A DNA stretch of 64,000 bases from a virus. Where the stretch lies: positions 141,741 through 205,740 of the IMG/VR virus record IMGVR_UViG_3300042465_005589; one strand, given 5' to 3'. Of the stretch, positions 6,336-60,168 are shown piece after piece. Made by a program: the position numbers and the translations under genes. The first letter of the stretch is position 1, and each line of letters begins with the position of its first letter. The notes beneath the pieces were generated by a model. The model did no database searches and was not told where the DNA came from. It saw only the letters and a list, made by a program, of their open reading frames with translations.

Positions 6336-6347
6336 ACAAATAAATAT

Positions 6348-6373
6348 CCCCCAACACCGAAATAAAAGGGGGG
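6348..6373 (-). terminator. Hairpin (CCCCC...GGGGGG) downstream of the stop of gene 6379..7416.
   Basis: GC stem in an AT-rich context, with the TTAA/T-rich flank seen in the rest of this terminator family. Confidence 0.4.
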
Positions 6374-6378
6374 TTAAA

Positions 6379-7416
6379 TTAATCTACGTTAGTTATTTCG
6401 GTGGGGTGCTCTGTAAATACAGCAGAATTAAAACTGTGGGTATAATTTTTATTATCAAATTCCAACATTTTATTTGGATTAACAAATAATATTTTATCAA
6501 CCAATGATTTTCCCTTATAATCTCTCATACCATAAGTTTTAATGAAAAAAGGACCTTCTTTTTTACCGGCATACGAGACCAATGGTTTAATTTGATAGTT
6601 TATACCATCAATAGTAGCATCAACCCCTTCATATCTATCCATTATAGAACCCGATGGATAAAATGTAGTATTACTACCTTTTTTTAATATTTTAGCCAAT
6701 TCTTCACTTTTATATCCATTCTCAATGGATTGCCATTGACGTTCAACTAAAGGTTCAATAAAAGATGGATTATCTCTAAGTTCATTAGCCAACCAATTAA
6801 CAATATCCAAATCACTGTCCGATTTAGAGTATCTTTTGTTTATCAGTTCCTGAATTTCTTTTTTGGTATCAAAATAATTTAAAATAGACCAATCATCTTC
6901 ATTACCCAATTTTTCACCAATGGTATAGACACCTCTCACACCAGCAGAAAATATGTTATCTTGATAGTTCCATTTACCCGGACCATCATTATCCGGTGGG
7001 AACGCCAATTCCAAAGCCTTACGAATTTGATAAGATGTTATCTCCTGTTTAATATTGGTTTTAGAATCATCAAGTAAATTGAATAATATGTTATAGTATT
7101 TCCTATCCTTATAATATAATTCATCACTAAAAATAAATGGAACTCCTCCCTTATATCTAATATCATTTTTATCCAATTCAAATACCCCGTTAGGACCTCT
7201 AAAGATTACAAATTGAGGTTCGTTTGGTTTTTTATAATCCGATTTTCCAAATTCAGTACCATTAAAAAATGCAATAAATTTTTTAGGGTATTTTTTATCA
7301 GGAACAACACCGATTGATTTATACTCATATTCAGGATTCTCATCCGAATAATCAAACGCACGATTAACCTCACTAACTAATACTTTATATTGTCGTTCTT
7401 TTATTAATATATTCAT
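6379..7416 (-). CDS. Hypothetical protein (345 aa) with an ITE-like N-terminus (MNILIKERQYKVLV).
   Basis: Long ORF. A hairpin terminator (6348-6373) follows its stop and an intergenic repeat copy lies upstream. Confidence 0.65.
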   Translation of the reverse strand: MNILIKERQYKVLVSEVNRAFDYSDENPEYEYKSIGVVPDKKYPKKFIAFFNGTEFGKSDYKKPNEPQFVIFRGPNGVFELDKNDIRYKGGVPFIFSDELYYKDRKYYNILFNLLDDSKTNIKQEITSYQIRKALELAFPPDNDGPGKWNYQDNIFSAGVRGVYTIGEKLGNEDDWSILNYFDTKKEIQELINKRYSKSDSDLDIVNWLANELRDNPSFIEPLVERQWQSIENGYKSEELAKILKKGSNTTFYPSGSIMDRYEGVDATIDGINYQIKPLVSYAGKKEGPFFIKTYGMRDYKGKSLVDKILFVNPNKMLEFDNKNYTHSFNSAVFTEHPTEITNVD

Positions 7417-7437
7417 AATAATAAATATCTATGTTTT

Positions 7438-7508
7438 CAAAAAAAGGGGCGGGGGGATTTTAATTCGACCGGAGGAAGATTGGGTGGGGAATAACGTTAC
7501 CACCAACC
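7438..7508. repeat. Intergenic repeat copy A (AAAAAAAGGGGCGGGGGGATTTTAATTCGACCGGAGGAAGATTGGGTGGGG...).
   Basis: It shares the AAAAAAGGGGGCGGGGGGATT head with copies B and C. It sits directly upstream, on the coding strand, of gene 6379..7416. Confidence 0.55.
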
Positions 7509-9940: not shown

Positions 9941-9965
9941 AAAAAACCCCACAATCAAGTGGGGG
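9941..9965 (-). terminator. Intrinsic terminator. The minus strand reads CCCCCACTTGATTGTGGGG followed by TTTTTT.
   Basis: 6-bp GC stem plus a T run, directly after the stop of 9966..10256. Confidence 0.6.
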
Positions 9966-10633: not shown

Positions 10634-10656
10634 AATGATAAATATACATCATTCCA

Positions 10657-10704
10657 AAAAAAGGGGGCGGGGGGATTTGAGAACGACCGAAGGGAGTCCG
10701 GGTT
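10657..10704. repeat. Intergenic repeat copy B (AAAAAAAGGGGGCGGGGGGATTTGAGAACGACCGAAGGGAGTCCGGGTTATC).
   Basis: It shares an identical 19-nt core, GACCGAAGGGAGTCCGGGT, with copy C. It sits directly upstream of 10259..10633 and overlaps the stop of 10703..11302. Confidence 0.6.
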
Positions 10705-11345: not shown

Positions 11346-11353
11346 TCCAAACA

Positions 11354-11430
11354 AAAAAGGGGGCGGGGGGATTGAACCCGACCGAAGGGAGTCCGGGTCC
11401 ACAGAGGTCCGTCATTCCCGACCCCAACCG
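11354..11430. repeat. Intergenic repeat copy C, the longest (AAAAAAGGGGGCGGGGGGATTGAACCCGACCGAAGGGAGTCCGGGTCCACAGAGGTCCGTCATTCCCGACCCCAACC).
   Basis: It sits upstream of 10703..11302 and overlaps the 3' end of 11412..11819. Confidence 0.6.
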
Positions 11431-11890: not shown

Positions 11891-13153
11891 TTAATGTCTA
11901 TTCCCTTGACTCTTGTTATCAGAACTCTCCTGTAACACCAAGTTATCATACGTACTATCACCACCTTTAGAATGTGGTTTATCCTTATGACCCCCATTTA
12001 TAACCTTACCGTTCTTAACCTGAAGGGGGGTGTAAATCTCAACACTACCATCCAACCTCGTAACAACACCTCCGGTCTCAATACACTTAGCCAACTTCTC
12101 CATCTCAGTGAACAATCTCTTAGAATCCAACTCATAGAAGTATTCCCCAATAAACGGGTGGAAATCATTATACATACACTCAAACTTATATTTCAAATTC
12201 TTAGTCATAGAACGACATAGATATGTCCAATTACTATTCATAGGATTCTTAAAGGTATCAATTATCCTCTGATTGTCCAATTCCAAATACTTATCAACAA
12301 ACTCAGATATCAAATCCTTATTCAATACACAGTTGTATTCACGACTCATATCCAATAAGAACATAAACAAATTAAATGAATTACCCTTAGTAATATCCGA
12401 TTTAGTTTCGTGTATCAAATTAATACACTTACCCCATACCTTCATAATGTCATTGAAATTCTTCTCATTGAATATTTCAACATTCTTATACATCAAATCC
12501 AAATTAGTAGTGTTCAATGTCTTGTCCTTTGATTGGTGATAAGATAAAAACTGACTAACCAATTCCAAATCTTTCATCCTTGAAAAGGTCAACCCACTTA
12601 TCTTTAATAACTCCCCACTATAATCAATACCGTTCTTACGAATAAACTCAGAAATAATCCCCTCCTCAGCATTCCTTCTCTCTTGGGGATTAGCAGATGT
12701 ATTACTGTTCAAATTAATGAAGGTTCTATGTAATTGATTCTTCGTAGCATTGAAAATATACTTTAAACTAATCTCACTATTGAAGAAGTCAAACATCATA
12801 TCACTCAATGGGGAATTCCAATCAATCTCATTATACTTCTCAATCAAAAACTCAGTCCTGTTCCCCCCATCTATTGAAATGTAACGATACCCCTGATTCC
12901 ATAAACTTGAAAAATATTCATAGTCCTTCGTATTATTCTGACTAAAGGAATATTCCATTGAAGACTTAATGTCACACAATACAATGTTACTCGCATCTGT
13001 ACCATCTAACAATGATAAATGATAACTAACCTTGTCGGTTTTCTTCCACACTTTTCTTCTTTGAATAGTTGGGTCATAATATACCCTATTCCCCTTAACA
13101 ATGTGAATGAACCCCTGAATTGTTTTTGACTCGTACTTCTTAATGATTCCCAT
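11891..13153 (-). CDS. Candidate GmrSD-like type IV (modification-dependent) restriction protein, with an N-terminal DUF262 (ParB-like) region and a C-terminal DUF1524 (HNH-like) region.
   Basis: DUF262-like motifs YYDPTIQRRKVW and ISIDGGNRTEF (compare xPxYQRxYxW ... IDGQQR). C-terminal GGHKDKPHSKGGDSTYDNLVLQESSDNKSQGN resembles the DUF1524 H..P...GG...NL.L...N..KGN signature. Promoter motif lies 27 nt upstream. Confidence 0.55.
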   Translation of the reverse strand: MGIIKKYESKTIQGFIHIVKGNRVYYDPTIQRRKVWKKTDKVSYHLSLLDGTDASNIVLCDIKSSMEYSFSQNNTKDYEYFSSLWNQGYRYISIDGGNRTEFLIEKYNEIDWNSPLSDMMFDFFNSEISLKYIFNATKNQLHRTFINLNSNTSANPQERRNAEEGIISEFIRKNGIDYSGELLKISGLTFSRMKDLELVSQFLSYHQSKDKTLNTTNLDLMYKNVEIFNEKNFNDIMKVWGKCINLIHETKSDITKGNSFNLFMFLLDMSREYNCVLNKDLISEFVDKYLELDNQRIIDTFKNPMNSNWTYLCRSMTKNLKYKFECMYNDFHPFIGEYFYELDSKRLFTEMEKLAKCIETGGVVTRLDGSVEIYTPLQVKNGKVINGGHKDKPHSKGGDSTYDNLVLQESSDNKSQGNRH

Positions 13154-13179
13154 AACGTTTATGTTTTAAAGTTTAACGG

Positions 13180-13207
13180 GACAAAGATAATACTTTTTTT
13201 TTAATAA
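13180..13207 (-). promoter_or_regulatory. Conserved upstream motif copy (GACAAAGATAATACTTTTTTTTTTAATA).
   Basis: 27 nt upstream of the GmrSD-like gene start. Confidence 0.5.
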
Positions 13208-13426
13208 CCAAATTTTTTCCAGAATTTTTTTTTTCATATCTCATATTCCAATATACGATATGACCCCATCCGGAAATTTTCCGGATTACTAATCATTATT
13301 TCCGGATACCCAATTAACAGGGGGGATTTTCCCCAATTTTTTTCCAAAAATTTTTTAAGGTTTTTTTTCTCGAATACTTTGTTTAAGGGATTATCCCCCC
13401 TATTTGACTGTCAATATGTCATATAT

Positions 13427-13475
13427 GGAGGGGGGATACGGGGGAGGGAGGGGGTATGCCCCCACATAGGGGGTA
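13427..13475 (+). other. G-quadruplex-forming motif (G6-ATAC-G5-A-G3-A-G5) that overlaps mutually exclusive GC hairpins (GGGGGTATGCCCCC and CCCCCACATAGGGGG).
   Basis: GGAGGGGGGATACGGGGGAGGGAGGGGGTATGCCCCCACATAGGGGG, set in a genome of about 30% GC. Confidence 0.6.
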
Positions 13476-13531
13476 AGATGGGAGGAGTTATCATAAGTTA
13501 TGAACACTCCCTCCGGTATGATGTTAATAAG

Positions 13532-13972
13532 TTATTGCATTATGTAATGGTCACGACGTATTCGTCTTGGTACATTAACTATCTCCCCTCTGAAGTTTTC
13601 GTAAGGGTAATTGATTTGGAATTCTTCCGGTAGTTGTTCATTGACATCAGTCATTAGACGTTCCATGTTATCTGTTGTATCATATGATAGGTCTTTAAGT
13701 TGGGGGTTGTCATCGTAACTGAATAGACCACCCAATGTATATGTTTCATATGGACCTTGTGTATCAAGATGTTCTACCCAATGTTTATTGGTTTCAATAC
13801 CAAAGAAGTTAGCTAACATCTTATAGTCCACCATGAAGTCAATGTTTAACATGGTATCATACTTAAGGAAGTCATTAGATGGTTTCCATCCTAAGATGAA
13901 AGGGTATTTCTTTTTGATAGCGTTGACCATCATGTCCACACTTCTCATTTGTTTTTTAGTTAATTGTTCCAT
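13532..13972 (-). CDS. Hypothetical protein inside the low-coding region.
   Basis: 146-aa ORF with protein-like composition. Confidence 0.5.
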   Translation of the reverse strand: MEQLTKKQMRSVDMMVNAIKKKYPFILGWKPSNDFLKYDTMLNIDFMVDYKMLANFFGIETNKHWVEHLDTQGPYETYTLGGLFSYDDNPQLKDLSYDTTDNMERLMTDVNEQLPEEFQINYPYENFRGEIVNVPRRIRRDHYIMQ

Positions 13973-14054
13973 ATGTTAATAAATATAATGAAATTTGTTT
14001 GTGGATACAAATCTTTTTTGTATCTTTGTACCACAGAATCGGTAATCAGTCCGG

Positions 14055-14096
14055 ATGGGGGCGAACCTTAAGGGTGGAAGAGTAGACTCCACAGCG
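14055..14096. repeat. Degenerate repeat copy D (GGATGGGGGCGAACCTTAAGGGTGGAAGAGTAGACTCCACAG).
   Basis: It shares the GGGGGCG(A/G), AAGGG and CCACAG segments with copy C. Confidence 0.35.
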
Positions 14097-14414
14097 CTCT
14101 ATATTTATATATATCCCCCCATTTACTGAGAATATGATAATGGAGTATATATACTTCTGAAAATAATTGTTAATGAATCCCCCATTTTGTTGAGAATGTC
14201 ATAATTTATTTATATCTTTGTTAATTGACGGTGATTATCGCCGGTAACTATTAAACATTTAAACTATGATGATACTATTTAATATACTAATTGTGATGGG
14301 GGTTCTTATTTTCATTGGTGAAGTTGTGGCTCAGAAACTACCTAAAGACAATTCCTTTGTTATATGGTGGAGGAAACATATCATCGAACATTTATCCGAT
14401 GATGACCCCCGATT

Positions 14415-14744
14415 CTAATTCCCGTTTATAATATAGTCCTCGACACATTGAAGGGAATGTTCCCTTATCTCCATAGTCATCCCTGTTAAGTCATCACTTG
14501 ATAGGGGGGAATCTATATTTATCTTTTCTATAATATCCCCCATCTCACATGCCGTTAGAAGTAAAATCTTTTGACTGATTGGTTTTCTCTGTCCCGGAAG
14601 ACTAACATAATTATACTCACACACTCCTGTGTACTGCTCATAACTATAATTTACAATATACTTTTCCCCCTCACAAACAACCTCAATTGCGAAATTGTTT
14701 AGTAATCTTTGACTCTTATTTAGACTTGTTCTGTTTTGGTACAT
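14415..14744 (-). CDS. Hypothetical protein inside the low-coding region.
   Basis: 109-aa ORF. Confidence 0.45.
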   Translation of the reverse strand: MYQNRTSLNKSQRLLNNFAIEVVCEGEKYIVNYSYEQYTGVCEYNYVSLPGQRKPISQKILLLTACEMGDIIEKINIDSPLSSDDLTGMTMEIREHSLQCVEDYIINGN

Positions 14745-15282
14745 ATTATTAACACTTATTTGTTAATAAATATAAGGGTCTAATGTTTATTCTACATACT
14801 CATGGGGGGAATTGTTGATAACTTAATATGTTAAATTCCTTGATTTTGTCAAAATGTCATGTCTGTTTCACGATGGGGATAATCCTTTTTCCCACTTTTT
14901 CCCCCATTTAACCTACACAGTCTACCACTTTTTACCACCGGATATGGTCATGACGCTATGTCAGTGTCCACTTTTCCCCCTCTGTAGGTAGTGTTAGGAC
15001 CAATAAATTAGGTATAGACGTTTCCCAGTAAATTGTATTAGTTATGGTCTATGATGCGGTGGAACCGTTAGGTGTTAGGAGATTCACTTCAACGACCCGT
15101 TAAGGGTATATAATTGACCACTAATGAACGAATTAAAAATATATAATATGGGACACTATAGAGACATAAAATACCATTAAAACTTACTATTCGTATCACT
15201 CTTGTGAGTTTAAAACTGACTGTAGTGATACAAAACATAACTTTTTAATCGATACCGTAATACAAGTTACCGTAACGTCCAT

Positions 15283-15340
15283 TACAATGTTCATTTAAAT
15301 CTATTGTTCATTGCAAATGAACATACTCTAATAATGAACA
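15283..15340. promoter_or_regulatory. Cluster of TGTTCATT / AATGAACA half-sites, including the palindrome TGTTCATTGCAAATGAACA. Operator-like.
   Basis: Four half-sites within 58 nt at 15288-15295, 15305-15323 and 15333-15340. Confidence 0.4.
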
Positions 15341-15712
15341 CCTCATCCGGATAACTAATCATGTCTGTAGTTTGTGTCGGAGACCGACACATAGTGGAGT
15401 CCCACTCTATATGGGGGGAACTTGTTCCCCCAACATAAATGGGGGGATTGTTTACTTGACTATTAATGGTCAATAGTAAAATGTATATATGGTGAGTAAA
15501 AGGATTATAATATATGATGTGTAAAGTAAAACAGTTATAATATGTAAACTAATAGTATCTGTATAGATTATTGAGTTTTTTATACAGATGGAAGTTAACG
15601 TATATAAATAAATGGATTTCTTATACATAAGAAAATAGTAAAGGATAAAACTATGAGTGAATTCCGGAGTGAAACGCAGGACTATGAACGAATGGTTTAA
15701 TCGTTTAGTATT

Positions 15713-46079: not shown

Positions 46080-46445
46080 TTGTGTATTTATAAGTATATG
46101 GAACTAACTATAAACAAAAATAAATTCAAAGTCAAAACTGTTATATCTCCCAAAGACACTAGTCGTGGTATGATGAATAAAAGATTTGACGATACTTTTA
46201 ATGGTATGTTATTTATTATGTCAGATGGTCATCACTGTTTTTGGATGAAGAATTGTATAATTTCATTGGATATCATTATGATTGAAGACGATATTATAAC
46301 AAAAATTCACCACAACTGTCCTCCTTGTAAAACCAAAGATTGTAGAAACTATTGTGGTGAAGGTGATATGATACTTGAACTTCAAGGTGGTACCTGTAAA
46401 AAATTAGGGATTAAGTCCGGAGACAAAATCATTCATTACGATTGA
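46080..46445 (+). CDS. DUF192 (COG1430) family protein.
   Basis: RGMMNKRF...GMLFIMSDGHHCFWMKNCIISLDIIMIEDDIITKI...ILELQGGTCKKLGIKSGDKI. Confidence 0.5.
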   Translation: MCIYKYMELTINKNKFKVKTVISPKDTSRGMMNKRFDDTFNGMLFIMSDGHHCFWMKNCIISLDIIMIEDDIITKIHHNCPPCKTKDCRNYCGEGDMILELQGGTCKKLGIKSGDKIIHYD

Positions 46446-47842
46446 TTTATCTTTTCCTGTAACAATTTCACAAACTCATTCTGAATCATTTTTGTAAACT
46501 TAATATAAGGAGCATCTTCCGATTCTCTATTATACCCACCACTTCCTTTTGGTGGACGAGTACTTCTACCCATAAAGTTTAATCCTGAGATATTTGTAAT
46601 ACATTTGTGTCCACCACTATTTGCTTGAATGAAATCCCAAGCGTTTACCTTAATATCATCTAACATTTGTCTATGTTCTTCTGGCAATTCAGAAAATGGT
46701 TTTTCCATCATCTCACCAATATGTGTTAGTTTTTCTCTACCATTATCCATAGTTTTGAAATCTTTACCATATAACGCAACAAAGTCTTTAAATGTAAATC
46801 CTGTTGATTCAGGGTTAAAATCTTTTGAAGATTCCGATATCCACTTAATTGTTGAAAGGGATATTTCTCTTTGTTTTAATTGGTCTTCCCATTTTGATAA
46901 TACTTCTTGAGCAATCTCACCTAAGTTAACACCTTTCAATTGACGTTCACCTTTAAATGGGTTACAAGACGCTTGAACTAAACCTAAAGGCCAAGCAATT
47001 ACAATAAAATCAGCGTCAGGATTGTTTTTAAATGGTGTATATCTATCGTATGAACCGGGTTTAAACATTGAACCACCTCCGTATTGAACAATAACATTAC
47101 CTAATACCTTAACATTAGGATTTGTTTGCATTGATTTAACGTAATCTTCTTTATTTTTTTCAAGCTCTTCCGGTTTAGCATATCCCTTTTCAACCATTAT
47201 TCGTTTAATAGTTTGAAGGATATTTAATAATGATGGCGTACATTCCATAACCAACGTTTCTAAGAACCCTGGCTTATTTTTAAATGCTAATAATAGTTTG
47301 TTTGCAACTAACCCCATTAACATTTTATTTTTCTCTAACGATTTGTCCTTATCCAATTTAAATAAATAAGAAATTACTTGGTCTACTGAAATTTCATTAA
47401 CCGCATAATTTGCAGAATCCACTGTTGAAATAAGTAATATATCTGAAGACGGGAATAATTCTTTTGGAGAAACTACTTGAGATATTGTTTCAACATTTGA
47501 ACGAGAACTTCTAAATGATGTGGATTTAGTTTCTTCAGCTCCCGCTTGTCTATCGTGGTGGTCCGTATGAATCACAAACATTGGTTTTCCGTGAGCAAAA
47601 TCTACCAATACTGGCATAACATCACCGGTTGCGTCATTCTTCTTTACAGCAAACTCTTTATCGCCATATTGAATAATATGAGCATCCACCACTTTAATAC
47701 CGTTGTTCTCAAGATATTGTTTCATAGCAATTGCCGTCGTTACCCCATCCAAATCTTGATGAAAATATATTTCAGCTTTGGGGTATCGTTTAGCAAGAGC
47801 ATTAATATCTCTTAAACCACTTTCTTTTATAAGTTTTTTCAT
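46436..47842 (-). CDS. DHH/DHHA1 family phosphoesterase (NrnA/RecJ-like).
   Basis: DHH motifs YFHQDLDGVTTAIAM and MFVIHTDHHDR, plus the DHHA1 GGH motif (QANSGGHKCI). Confidence 0.7.
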   Translation of the reverse strand: MKKLIKESGLRDINALAKRYPKAEIYFHQDLDGVTTAIAMKQYLENNGIKVVDAHIIQYGDKEFAVKKNDATGDVMPVLVDFAHGKPMFVIHTDHHDRQAGAEETKSTSFRSSRSNVETISQVVSPKELFPSSDILLISTVDSANYAVNEISVDQVISYLFKLDKDKSLEKNKMLMGLVANKLLLAFKNKPGFLETLVMECTPSLLNILQTIKRIMVEKGYAKPEELEKNKEDYVKSMQTNPNVKVLGNVIVQYGGGSMFKPGSYDRYTPFKNNPDADFIVIAWPLGLVQASCNPFKGERQLKGVNLGEIAQEVLSKWEDQLKQREISLSTIKWISESSKDFNPESTGFTFKDFVALYGKDFKTMDNGREKLTHIGEMMEKPFSELPEEHRQMLDDIKVNAWDFIQANSGGHKCITNISGLNFMGRSTRPPKGSGGYNRESEDAPYIKFTKMIQNEFVKLLQEKINQS

Positions 47843-48240: not shown

Positions 48241-49104
48241 TTATAACACCTCTTCTTTTAATTCTAATTTTGTTTGTTTATGTTCATCAATTAACGATTG
48301 GACTCTTTTTCTCGCAATCTCTGTATAGTCCGGAGATAACTCAATCCCAATCCATCGTCTATCCAATAACTCAGCAGCAAATGCCGATGTTCCACTTCCC
48401 ATAAAAGGGTCAAGAACTATATCATTTTTATATGATAATATCTTAATTGCTTTTGATGGAATATCCATTGAGAATGTTGCTTTAGTTAACGACCTAGTAT
48501 CTGCAAAATATTCCCATCTACCAAAAACCAAGTTCATAAACTCTTTCTTATCTTCGTCCTGATAAACCATTTTATTTTTAGTTTTACCATCTTCTGTAGT
48601 TACTTCAGTTGGTGTACCTAACCACTGAGACTCCCCTTTGGTTAATTTCTTATTAGTTTTCTTGTAAGCTAGAATAATACATTCCTTAGGATTATAGATG
48701 TAAGGACAACTTGCGCTCATCCAAGAACCCCAAGCTGTTTGTCTAACTCTATGTGGGCTATCTTCTGTAAGGTCAACCATTCCATAAAATTTAAACCCAA
48801 CCTCTTTCATTTTCATCCAAAACTCTGCGTTGAATAATATTCTACCACCTCTTTCCTGTACGTTAATTTCTATAGGAACGTTGATTGCTATCCGACCATC
48901 ATCTTTTAATACTCTATAAGATTCTGTTAACCACTGCGTTGTAAAATCCCAATATTCATCCATAGGAATACTATCATTATAAACATCATATTTGATGTTA
49001 ACTCCGTAGGGTGGTGATGTCACCAATAAATCAATTGAACCTTCCGGGAAAGTTTTCATTACCTCAATACAATCTCCATTAATTATCTTTCCTGTTTCTA
49101 TCAT
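48241..49104 (-). CDS. Beta-class DNA methyltransferase (N4-cytosine or N6-adenine). The SPPY motif favours N4-cytosine.
   Basis: Motif IV LLVTSPPYGV near the N-terminus and motif I DPFMGSGTSAFAA near the C-terminus. Confidence 0.8.
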   Translation of the reverse strand: MIETGKIINGDCIEVMKTFPEGSIDLLVTSPPYGVNIKYDVYNDSIPMDEYWDFTTQWLTESYRVLKDDGRIAINVPIEINVQERGGRILFNAEFWMKMKEVGFKFYGMVDLTEDSPHRVRQTAWGSWMSASCPYIYNPKECIILAYKKTNKKLTKGESQWLGTPTEVTTEDGKTKNKMVYQDEDKKEFMNLVFGRWEYFADTRSLTKATFSMDIPSKAIKILSYKNDIVLDPFMGSGTSAFAAELLDRRWIGIELSPDYTEIARKRVQSLIDEHKQTKLELKEEVL

Positions 49105-59050: not shown

Positions 59051-59254
59051 ATGGAAACAATCGAAGGACAAATTATTGAGGAAAAGGATATTATTTACGC
59101 CACTCCTGAACAACCTAAAAAAGAATGTAAATCTTGCAAACGTAAAACATTATCAAAAACACATTGGACGATGGTAATATCATCAGTTTATTTATTATTC
59201 GCATCAATATACGGGACTATTAAATTAGTTGAGAAAATAATAAGTCTTTTTTAA
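59051..59254 (+). CDS. Small protein with a C-terminal transmembrane segment.
   Basis: 67-aa ORF. Confidence 0.4.
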
Positions 59255-60168
59255 TTACGTTTAAATTTAACGTGTAACTTAACAAATAAGTCACCCGTAT
59301 TATGAAACCCTTTAGATTTTACTCTAAGGGGTTTTTCTGTATCAAACTCTTCAGGTAATTTTATTGACATAACACCTTTAGGATGTTTCAAGTCTAATTT
59401 TTCATTTTTTAATGTATTCAAATCAAAATAAGCATTATAAATTAAATCATCCCCCGATTTTTCAAAATTATCTTCAGGAGCAACTTTAACTCTAATTACC
59501 AAATTACCATACACACCATTAACATAATCACCTTTACCCTGTAATTTTAAAAATTGACCCTCATCAATTCCATGTGGGAGTTTAATTGTAACTGTTTCAG
59601 TTTTAGTTGATGTTGTTTCACCATTACATGAACCACACACAGTTTTATATGAGAATCCTTTTCCACCACATGAATTACACGTTTGTCTTATAAGTTGGAC
59701 AAATAATCCGGAACCCACTCTTTGAGTTATAAACCCTTCTCCACCACACGAAGTACAATTTATTCTTTCACCACCATTACCATTACATGGTTCACACTTA
59801 TGTTTTCTATTATATGTAAAAGTTTTTTCCGAACCGTTATACGATTCTATAACACCTATTTTAACTTCAATAACCTTATCAGGTGCCGACCTTCTTCTTT
59901 GTTGGTGAAAATGATTCTGAAACATATCCTCAAAAGGATTAAATCCTCCACCACCCATATTAGAAAATGGATTATTTTTTTGACTATCATATTGTCTTCG
60001 TTTATTATCATCACCTATCGTATCATAAGCTTCCGATATTTTTTTAAATGTCTCTTCATTACCCCCTTTATCAGGATGGTGTTCAATCGCTAATTTACGA
60101 TATGCCTTTTTAATCTCATCTTGAGTTGCGTTTTCATTTACACCTAGTGTTTGATAAAAATTCTCCAT
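59251..60168 (-). CDS. dnaJ: DnaJ co-chaperone (J domain, four CxxCxGxG zinc fingers and a C-terminal domain).
   Basis: [30 protein letters not shown] with the HPD motif, and the zinc fingers [31 protein letters not shown]. Confidence 0.85.

Follow-up and report, generated by a model that had tools for sequence, protein, structure and literature searches.

A conserved non-coding module with a strand-specific G/C tract in probable Bacteroidota jumbo phages is a candidate DNA control site and possible replication origin

We identify a conserved non-coding core of ∼90 bp (about 13387-13475) in a 64,000-nucleotide stretch of viral DNA (the window throughout), where it lies inside a 378-bp intergenic region (13154-13531). 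The core combines an inverted repeat and a palindrome with a G/C tract able to form a G-quadruplex (G4) motif, and at least 128 distinct variants of it occur in jumbo-phage contigs, with one copy per locus. Judging from its sequence and from that of its relatives, the core is most likely a DNA control site and possibly a replication origin. To our knowledge, jumbo phages of Bacteroidota, from which the window probably derives, have been seen in metagenomes alone, and no cis-acting DNA has been described for them.

A sequence-only reading of the window had described G6-N4-G5-N1-G3-N1-G5 as a canonical intramolecular G4 motif. The motif is real: sequence inspection, motif scanning, G4Hunter, folding and the C-rich tract of relatives all point to GGGGGGATACGGGGGAGGGAGGGGG (G6-ATAC-G5-A-G3-A-G5; 13430-13454, plus strand), which is the single match to the pattern G3+N1-7 (x4) when both strands of the 64 kb are scanned. 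G4Hunter, the scoring that the same reading had proposed, gives 2.88 in a 25-nt window, compared with a membership threshold of 1.2-2; this is the maximum of the window and lies above all 300 first-order Markov simulations, whose maximum scores average 1.76 and never exceed 2.52. Some canonical G4 or C4 motif nevertheless appears in 38 of the 300 composition-matched simulated windows (13%), because GG/CC dinucleotides are enriched in this sequence (G+C is 31.2% in the window). The motif was thus called extremely unlikely by chance with good reason as far as its strength is concerned, but not with regard to its mere presence. Of the 28 G5+ runs in the window, 27 cluster within its first 15.5 kb, and most belong to intergenic G-run/C-run hairpins.

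Directly 3' of the G4 motif, sequence inspection locates TATGCCCCCACATAGGGGG (TATG-C5-ACATA-G5; 13455-13473, plus strand), so that the C5 tract at 13459-13463 is flanked on each side by G5. The resulting G5-TATG-C5-ACATA-G5 arrangement (13450-13473, plus strand; C5-TATGT-G5-CATA-C5 when read on the minus strand) allows alternative 5-bp hairpins, in which the C-run pairs with either neighboring G-run as had been noted, and an equivalent C-run/loop/G-run is present in most relatives. Folding without a G4 option returns these hairpins together with the long inverted repeat on both strands; for the plus strand it yields C5/G5 pairing (13459-13473) and a long hairpin (13392-13438). When G4 formation is allowed (RNA parameters, isolated plus strand), the energy model favors a five-layer G4 (-35.6 versus -18.8 kcal/mol), predicted to be built from the G5 runs at 13431, 13440, 13450, and 13469.

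The gene-sense complement of the G4 motif on the minus strand is a C-tract (CCCCCTCCCTCCCCC-GTAT-CCCCCC), and the core reads on this strand as C-tract, GTATCCCCCC, a spacer of 26-32 nt, and GGGGGGATAATCC. Its two invariant family blocks, TATCCCCCC (13392-13400) and GGGGGGATA (13430-13438), form a 9-bp perfect inverted repeat around a 29-nt spacer (13392-13438). A palindrome, GGGATTATCCCCCC (GGGGGGATAATCCC on the minus strand; 13387-13400), occupies invariant columns in the family alignment, and the palindrome GGGGATAATCCCC overlaps the TATCCCCCC/GGGGGGATA inverted repeat. Sequence and family comparison define a further palindrome, TTGACTGTCAA (13404-13414), and a minus-strand direct repeat, TGACAtatTGAC (13410-13421), in the spacer; relatives carry TGTCAgaaTGTCA, TGACAtttTGAC, or G-run/T-run variants there, with short direct repeats including TGACAtatTGACA, and their spacers end in GTCA plus 4-5 A/T bases, followed by G6. 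Just past the stop codon of the adjoining 146-aa gene, sequence and folding reveal a hairpin (GGGAGGAGT...ACTCCCTCC; 13480-13513) with two 10-mers, GTTATCATAA and GTTATGAACA, in tandem within its loop (box GTTATNNACA, 13497-13506). On the other side of the core lies an A/T-tract region (T7CC A5 T6 ... T8; 13320-13386), bounded by GGGGGGATTTTCCCC (13320-13334) and equivalent to aaaatttttgggaaaaaa in relatives. The A+T enrichment is modest, amounting to 74% at +50 to +175 in the family compared with 62-69% in the flanks.

The family shares this order on the gene-sense strand: one or more G-rich/C-rich hairpins, whose loops contain GTTATNNACA 10-mers, often as tandem pairs; a C5-6/loop/G4-5 hairpin; a pyrimidine tract such as CCCCCTCCCTCCCCC; the invariant GTATCCCCCC; the 26-32 nt spacer; the invariant GGGGGGATAATCC(C); and A/T tracts like aaaatttttgggaaaaaa. 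On family average, the 16 nt preceding GTATCCCCCC are 63% C, 15% T, 13% G, and 8% A. What is invariant is not what a G4 requires: the fixed positions belong to the 9-bp inverted repeat and the palindrome (GTATCCCCCC and GGGGGGATAATCC), not to the G4 loops.

Two distant relatives located via an HNH protein (L007 and L008) revealed that the G4 tract is the complement of a conserved, gene-sense C-rich tract within a larger module. A search with the two most conserved blocks (TATCCCCCC, N15-45, GGGGGATAATCC) matched 58 IMG/VR contigs of up to 326 kb and at least 120 metagenome contigs, with about 114 of the metagenome matches listed being true. Although 15-45 nt were allowed, the spacer measures 26-32 nt across the 128 unique relatives among the matches listed. 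The sequence-only reading had tied its proposal to conservation of the tract in related genomes, and there the tract is kept: among the matches listed, at least four C3+ tracts fall within 54 nt in 127 of 132 unique modules (96%), and 94 of the 132 (71%) retain the strict G4 motif. The potential to form a G4 or an i-motif is therefore selected, or at least preserved. One exceptional lineage (L008/L009) has CCTCCTCCTC in place of the C-runs, and in one subtype (e.g. L011 and L087) the C-tract is shifted to the 3' side of GTATCCCCCC. The strand that bears the C-tract is identical in all relatives and the exact tract sequence is variable; near-identical strains show no variation in the core.

Conservation of the module is far stronger than that of the surrounding proteins. 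We also find it in three loci (L073, L075, and L076) that were picked via the 146-aa protein (52-64% amino acid identity) rather than via the DNA pattern, and the core is 96% identical to that of L076, compared with 75% for the adjoining 146-aa gene. In 34 loci without tblastn similarity to the upstream protein, the core is still 68-91% identical. The module is always located 3' of the 146-aa gene and in the same orientation in the loci compared, and conservation of the core is far above that of the other promoter regions compared. Four relatives at ∼30% identity to the 146-aa protein were found, all without the module, and the 420-aa protein encoded on the other side yielded no loci when used as a seed. 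GenBank phages returned no match by megablast, blastn, or tblastn, and the exact 34-mer has no match in IMG/VR. Scanning 185,579 bacterial and archaeal species genomes gave one true match, on a 2.5-kb binned contig, the rest being chance inverted repeats. We thus reject an attP site or a host gene as the source of the core, which is absent from host genomes apart from this contig. We also reject a coding role for a plus-strand ORF overlapping the core (13379-13633), because the tract carries non-triplet indels among relatives. The databases and literature that we searched hold no description of this element. As a marker of the lineage, GTATCCCCCC, 26-32 nt, GGGGGGATAATCC is compact and easily spotted, and it could recruit fragmented contigs.

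The 146-aa gene (13532-13972, minus strand) encodes an acidic protein, is conserved by family comparison, and abuts the module with its 3' end. On the opposite side, the 420-aa gene (11891-13153, minus strand) has homologues with HNH domains, and its product contains an N-terminal DGGNR (ParB/DUF262-like) motif. It is probably a mobile or defense-type insertion; it lies 3' of the module in only nine sampled loci, with different genes there in other relatives, and the gene downstream of the module is not conserved. A motif scan assigns to the 420-aa gene a Bacteroidota-type promoter, TTTG-N19-TATCTTTG (13182-13212, minus strand), and promoters of this type (TTTG-N19-21-TAnnTTTG) recur in intergenic regions of the window. 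Upstream of this promoter, a perfect 17-bp palindrome (TCCGGAAATTTTCCGGA; 13269-13285), with a related copy upstream of the L006 homologue, looks like an operator.

The same scan finds a consensus Bacteroidota promoter, TTTG-N19-TATCTTTG, directed away from the 146-aa gene (13998-14028, plus strand). The ∼90 nt behind it, up to C6 (14115-14120), show no change in the mosaic strain L002 and are also conserved in L076; they may represent a small RNA, with a fold z-score that is not significant. A second plus-strand promoter is located near 14213, ahead of a 50-aa ORF (14266-14418). Strain L002 is a recombination mosaic with a ∼125-nt insertion and a diverged upstream block (alignment columns 193-325, ∼14270 in the window); from about 14110 down it matches the window exactly, and the mosaic boundary falls in non-coding DNA. 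Elsewhere in the window, ACCCGGACTCCCTTCGGTCG..TCAAATCCCCCCGCCCCC with T6-8 behind it forms an intergenic repeat placed between a stop codon and the -33 TTTG of the next promoter (7440-7485, 10658-10703, and 11353-11398, minus strand; also at ∼3880-3930 in L008). It holds a T-loop-like GGGTTCAATCCC, ARAGORN reports no tRNA, and an acceptor-like partner is present in one copy only. At 6345-6380, 7417-7460, and 10634-10680, several genes start 3-12 nt past a TATTTAT-type box, itself 12-19 nt after TTTG, which suggests that mRNAs here have very short leaders or none at all.

The contig sizes, the Bacteroidota promoters, and the DnaJ gene indicate that the source is probably a jumbo phage of Bacteroidota from the moraphage lineage. 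The recently described moraphages infect Bacteroidota and have jumbo genomes of up to 307 kb; they are T4-like in their structural and replication genes and encode DnaJ/DnaK, a reported hallmark, as well as PolB, primase, UvsW, SSB, and a sigma factor, while RNA polymerase is reported to be lacking (PMC12619734). The window, which encodes a full-length DnaJ (59251-60168) and has relatives on contigs of up to 326 kb, fits this lineage. Other products of the window include an N6/N4 DNA methylase and a DHH-domain protein (48241-49104 and 46436-47842).

Box repeats accompany the core. In 55 unique loci, we count 69 GTTATNNACA boxes within 200 nt upstream of the core, against a background of ∼0.02 per 100 nt; the enrichment spans -60 to -200 in either orientation, and a second cluster is found at -1100 to -1500, beyond the conserved 146-aa gene. 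Between relatives the boxes flip their orientation and keep their position, which fits double-stranded protein binding sites and not a function in RNA sequence. In one subclade (L007 and L016) they are perfect copies of the DnaA-box consensus TTATCCACA, present two or three times, whereas most boxes (TTATCAACA, TTATTAACA, and TTATGAACA, including those of the window) break the conserved C at DnaA-box position 6. Measured against TTATNCACA, the boxes of DnaA type in the window are TTATGAACA and TTATCATAA only.

Beyond the 109-aa and 146-aa genes, the motif set is present a second time (14804-14859, minus strand); this copy comprises TGACATTTTGAC (14848-14859), the box GTTATCAACA (14813-14822), and ATTCCCCCC (14804-14812); the recurring set can be written as TGACAnnnTGAC, box, and (A/T)TTCCCCCC. 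The 2.6-kb low-coding region 13154-15712 is dense in repeats: TCCCCCC occurs eight times there, compared with six times in the other 61 kb. Four copies of TGTTCATT (15288-15340), which form two inverted pairs, lie together with AAAGTGG in three copies (14892-14974) in ∼1 kb without a long ORF (14745-15712); this stretch is 84% identical to L076, a conservation equal to that of the neighboring coding sequence.

The localized boxes, their orientation flips, the DnaA consensus in one subclade, the tight spacing, and the recurring motif set favor a function at the level of DNA rather than RNA. We tentatively regard the core as a protein-assembly site on DNA, for which a replication origin is the likeliest role. 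Proteins would assemble on the GTATCCCCCC/GGGGGGATA inverted repeat, the GGGGATAATCCCC palindrome, and the upstream GTTATNNACA boxes; the strand-asymmetric G/C tract could adopt a non-B structure (a G4 on the plus strand, an i-motif on the minus strand, or a stable R-loop); and the A/T-tract region would be the easiest place to open. The replication signal named as one option by the sequence-only reading is thus the alternative that we infer to be the best. The reported gene content of the lineage, with UvsW, PolB, primase, and SSB but without an RNA polymerase, would allow host transcription to fire the origin in the manner of T4. The cumulative GC skew passes 13.4 kb monotonically, with no inflection, and is confounded since skew follows gene strand; the module sits within a long same-strand gene array and not at a divergence point. 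A promoter scan of the window located none at the module that would transcribe the G-rich strand, and we found no Rep or DnaA-like initiator. The more specific proposal, that origin firing depends on a conserved G4/i-motif or G-rich R-loop throughout these Bacteroidota jumbo phages, together with DnaA-box-like repeats, appears doubtful to us. Few structures of the G4, i-motif, or R-loop kind are under clear long-term selection in a bacterial virus, and the tract would join them if it does act through one.

A close rival is a transcriptional control hub, in which (A/T)(A/T)TCCCCC(C) and the palindromes would bind a phage regulator or a sigma factor/activator that controls the promoters of this early-type region, the G/C tract being a dense array of such sites. 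WWTCCCCC is found 28 times in the window compared with 10 expected, a number reached in none of 100 shuffles, and its gene-sense copies are intergenic and directly upstream of a -33 TTTG (e.g. at 10670, 11366, and 14176). In many relatives a gene starts ∼100 nt past the palindrome, preceded by a TATTTATA-type box, and moraphages encode a sigma factor (PMC12619734). A promoter or operator class should, however, recur, whereas the full module is present in a single copy, the gene downstream of it differs between relatives, and the module is far better conserved than the other promoter regions in the comparison. We consider a control hub possible, with a lower probability than an origin; the two do not exclude each other, because T4 origins are promoters.

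Function could also reside in RNA, as an element 3' of the 146-aa gene: a terminator or processing cluster, a structural switch, or a C-rich, single-stranded landing pad for Rho or a C-binding protein. The minus-strand RNA is predicted to form three hairpins that leave the C-tract unpaired (-70.6 kcal/mol, z = -3.4), and the constant position and orientation behind the 146-aa gene and the conserved strand asymmetry would be accounted for. Among the matches listed, 27 of 128 relatives contain a textbook C6-loop-G5-T6 terminator in the spacer, and G-run/C-run hairpins act as intercistronic terminators elsewhere in the window (e.g. 9947-9964). Yet a terminator scan of the window returned none at 13380-13520, where no T-run follows any hairpin, and the T-run is absent in 101 of the same 128 relatives. 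There is no leader peptide, and the stems, being homopolymeric, leave no covariation that could be tested. From one relative to another the loop boxes turn into their complement, a change that a function in RNA sequence would not tolerate, and a simple terminator would not outdo the surrounding proteins in conservation. We therefore judge an RNA-level element to be rather unlikely. The attenuator-like switch put forward from the sequence is not supported: alternative pairings exist, but we detect no terminator, no leader ORF, no U-tract after the hairpins in the window, and no Rfam aptamer.

A free-standing structured non-coding RNA gene, on either strand, would explain strong conservation without coding potential, C-tract indels that are not multiples of three, and the stable fold. 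We think this improbable: Rfam gives no match at the gathering threshold and no family even at a permissive one (the best hit reaches 24 bits against a cutoff of 78), ARAGORN finds no tRNA, no Bacteroidota-type promoter precedes the module on either strand, no compensatory changes are seen, and the boxes flip in orientation.

Still less probable is a packaging (pac/cos) site, a physical genome end, or a recombination hotspot. The module is single copy and highly conserved, strain L002 is mosaic around this region, and, among the matches listed, 10 of 69 whole metagenome contigs end ≤60 nt from the module compared with 3.3 expected, so that the core acts as an assembly break point. Six contigs start (L086, L098, L101, L102, L116, and L154) and four end (L096, L099, L130, and L131) within ∼50 nt of the core. 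The breaks fall at both core borders (-3 to -26 and +16 to +53), the module is ∼60 kb from the end of a 209.7-kb contig, and there is no terminase gene nearby. Rather than genome termini, the breaks more likely reflect branching of the assembly graph at a sequence common to co-occurring phages, or low coverage of G/C homopolymers; the module thus explains some assembly breaks. A T7-like phage RNA polymerase promoter, suggested by a TATA-GGGGGG resemblance, is rejected, since the module occurs only once and RNA polymerase genes are reportedly absent from the lineage (PMC12619734). Complementary 7-11-mers at -76 to -100 would let the upstream G-rich arm pair with the C-tract over a long range, but they are uninformative because of the low-complexity composition.

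With the candidate origin as the preferred reading, the module can be compared with known systems; it resembles known origin architectures as well as G4-bearing viral and organellar origins, and it cannot be assigned to any family. Like Rho-independent terminators and attenuators, it places G/C-rich hairpins with alternative pairings right behind a gene, with a true stem and T-run in some relatives. Unlike these, it has no leader ORF, the window and most relatives carry no T-run, and its conservation goes far past the needs of a terminator. T4-type R-loop origins (oriF/oriG) consist of a promoter and a downstream unwinding element. The module likewise pairs promoter-like motifs with an adjacent A/T tract, in a T4-like lineage that has UvsW; we know of no G4-type tract and no comparable conservation in T4 origins. 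As in DnaA-box and iteron origins (bacterial oriC; P1 and iteron plasmids), TTATNCACA-type 9-10-mers are clustered, in tandem at ∼11-bp spacing, and the boxes, which flank a small conserved gene, precede a G/C-rich block and an A/T-rich region. In contrast to DnaA-box origins, consensus boxes are confined to one subclade and those of the window deviate at position 6; bacterial core origins also have just a short GC cluster, which the G/C block greatly exceeds in length, and the A/T region shows mild enrichment only.

The G/C tract itself is reminiscent of HCMV oriLyt (PMC11350156) and mitochondrial CSB II (PMC4176368), where strong, conserved, and strand-specific G-tracts lie in a non-coding control region beside A/T-rich DNA, in a genome of otherwise different composition. 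In CSB II, the replication primer arises from a hybrid G4 or R-loop made up of the G-rich transcript and the non-template strand (PMC4176368). Both of these systems are experimentally proven, whereas the module is known from sequence; in contrast to them, its invariant bases belong to an inverted repeat and a palindrome instead of the G-tracts, and a promoter for the G-rich strand is not found at the module. The module nevertheless provides a concrete target in the search for an origin or master control region in these phages. If its firing did depend on a G4/i-motif element or a G-rich R-loop, the candidate origin would be a prokaryotic-virus counterpart of the G4 elements in mitochondrial CSB II or herpesvirus oriLyt.
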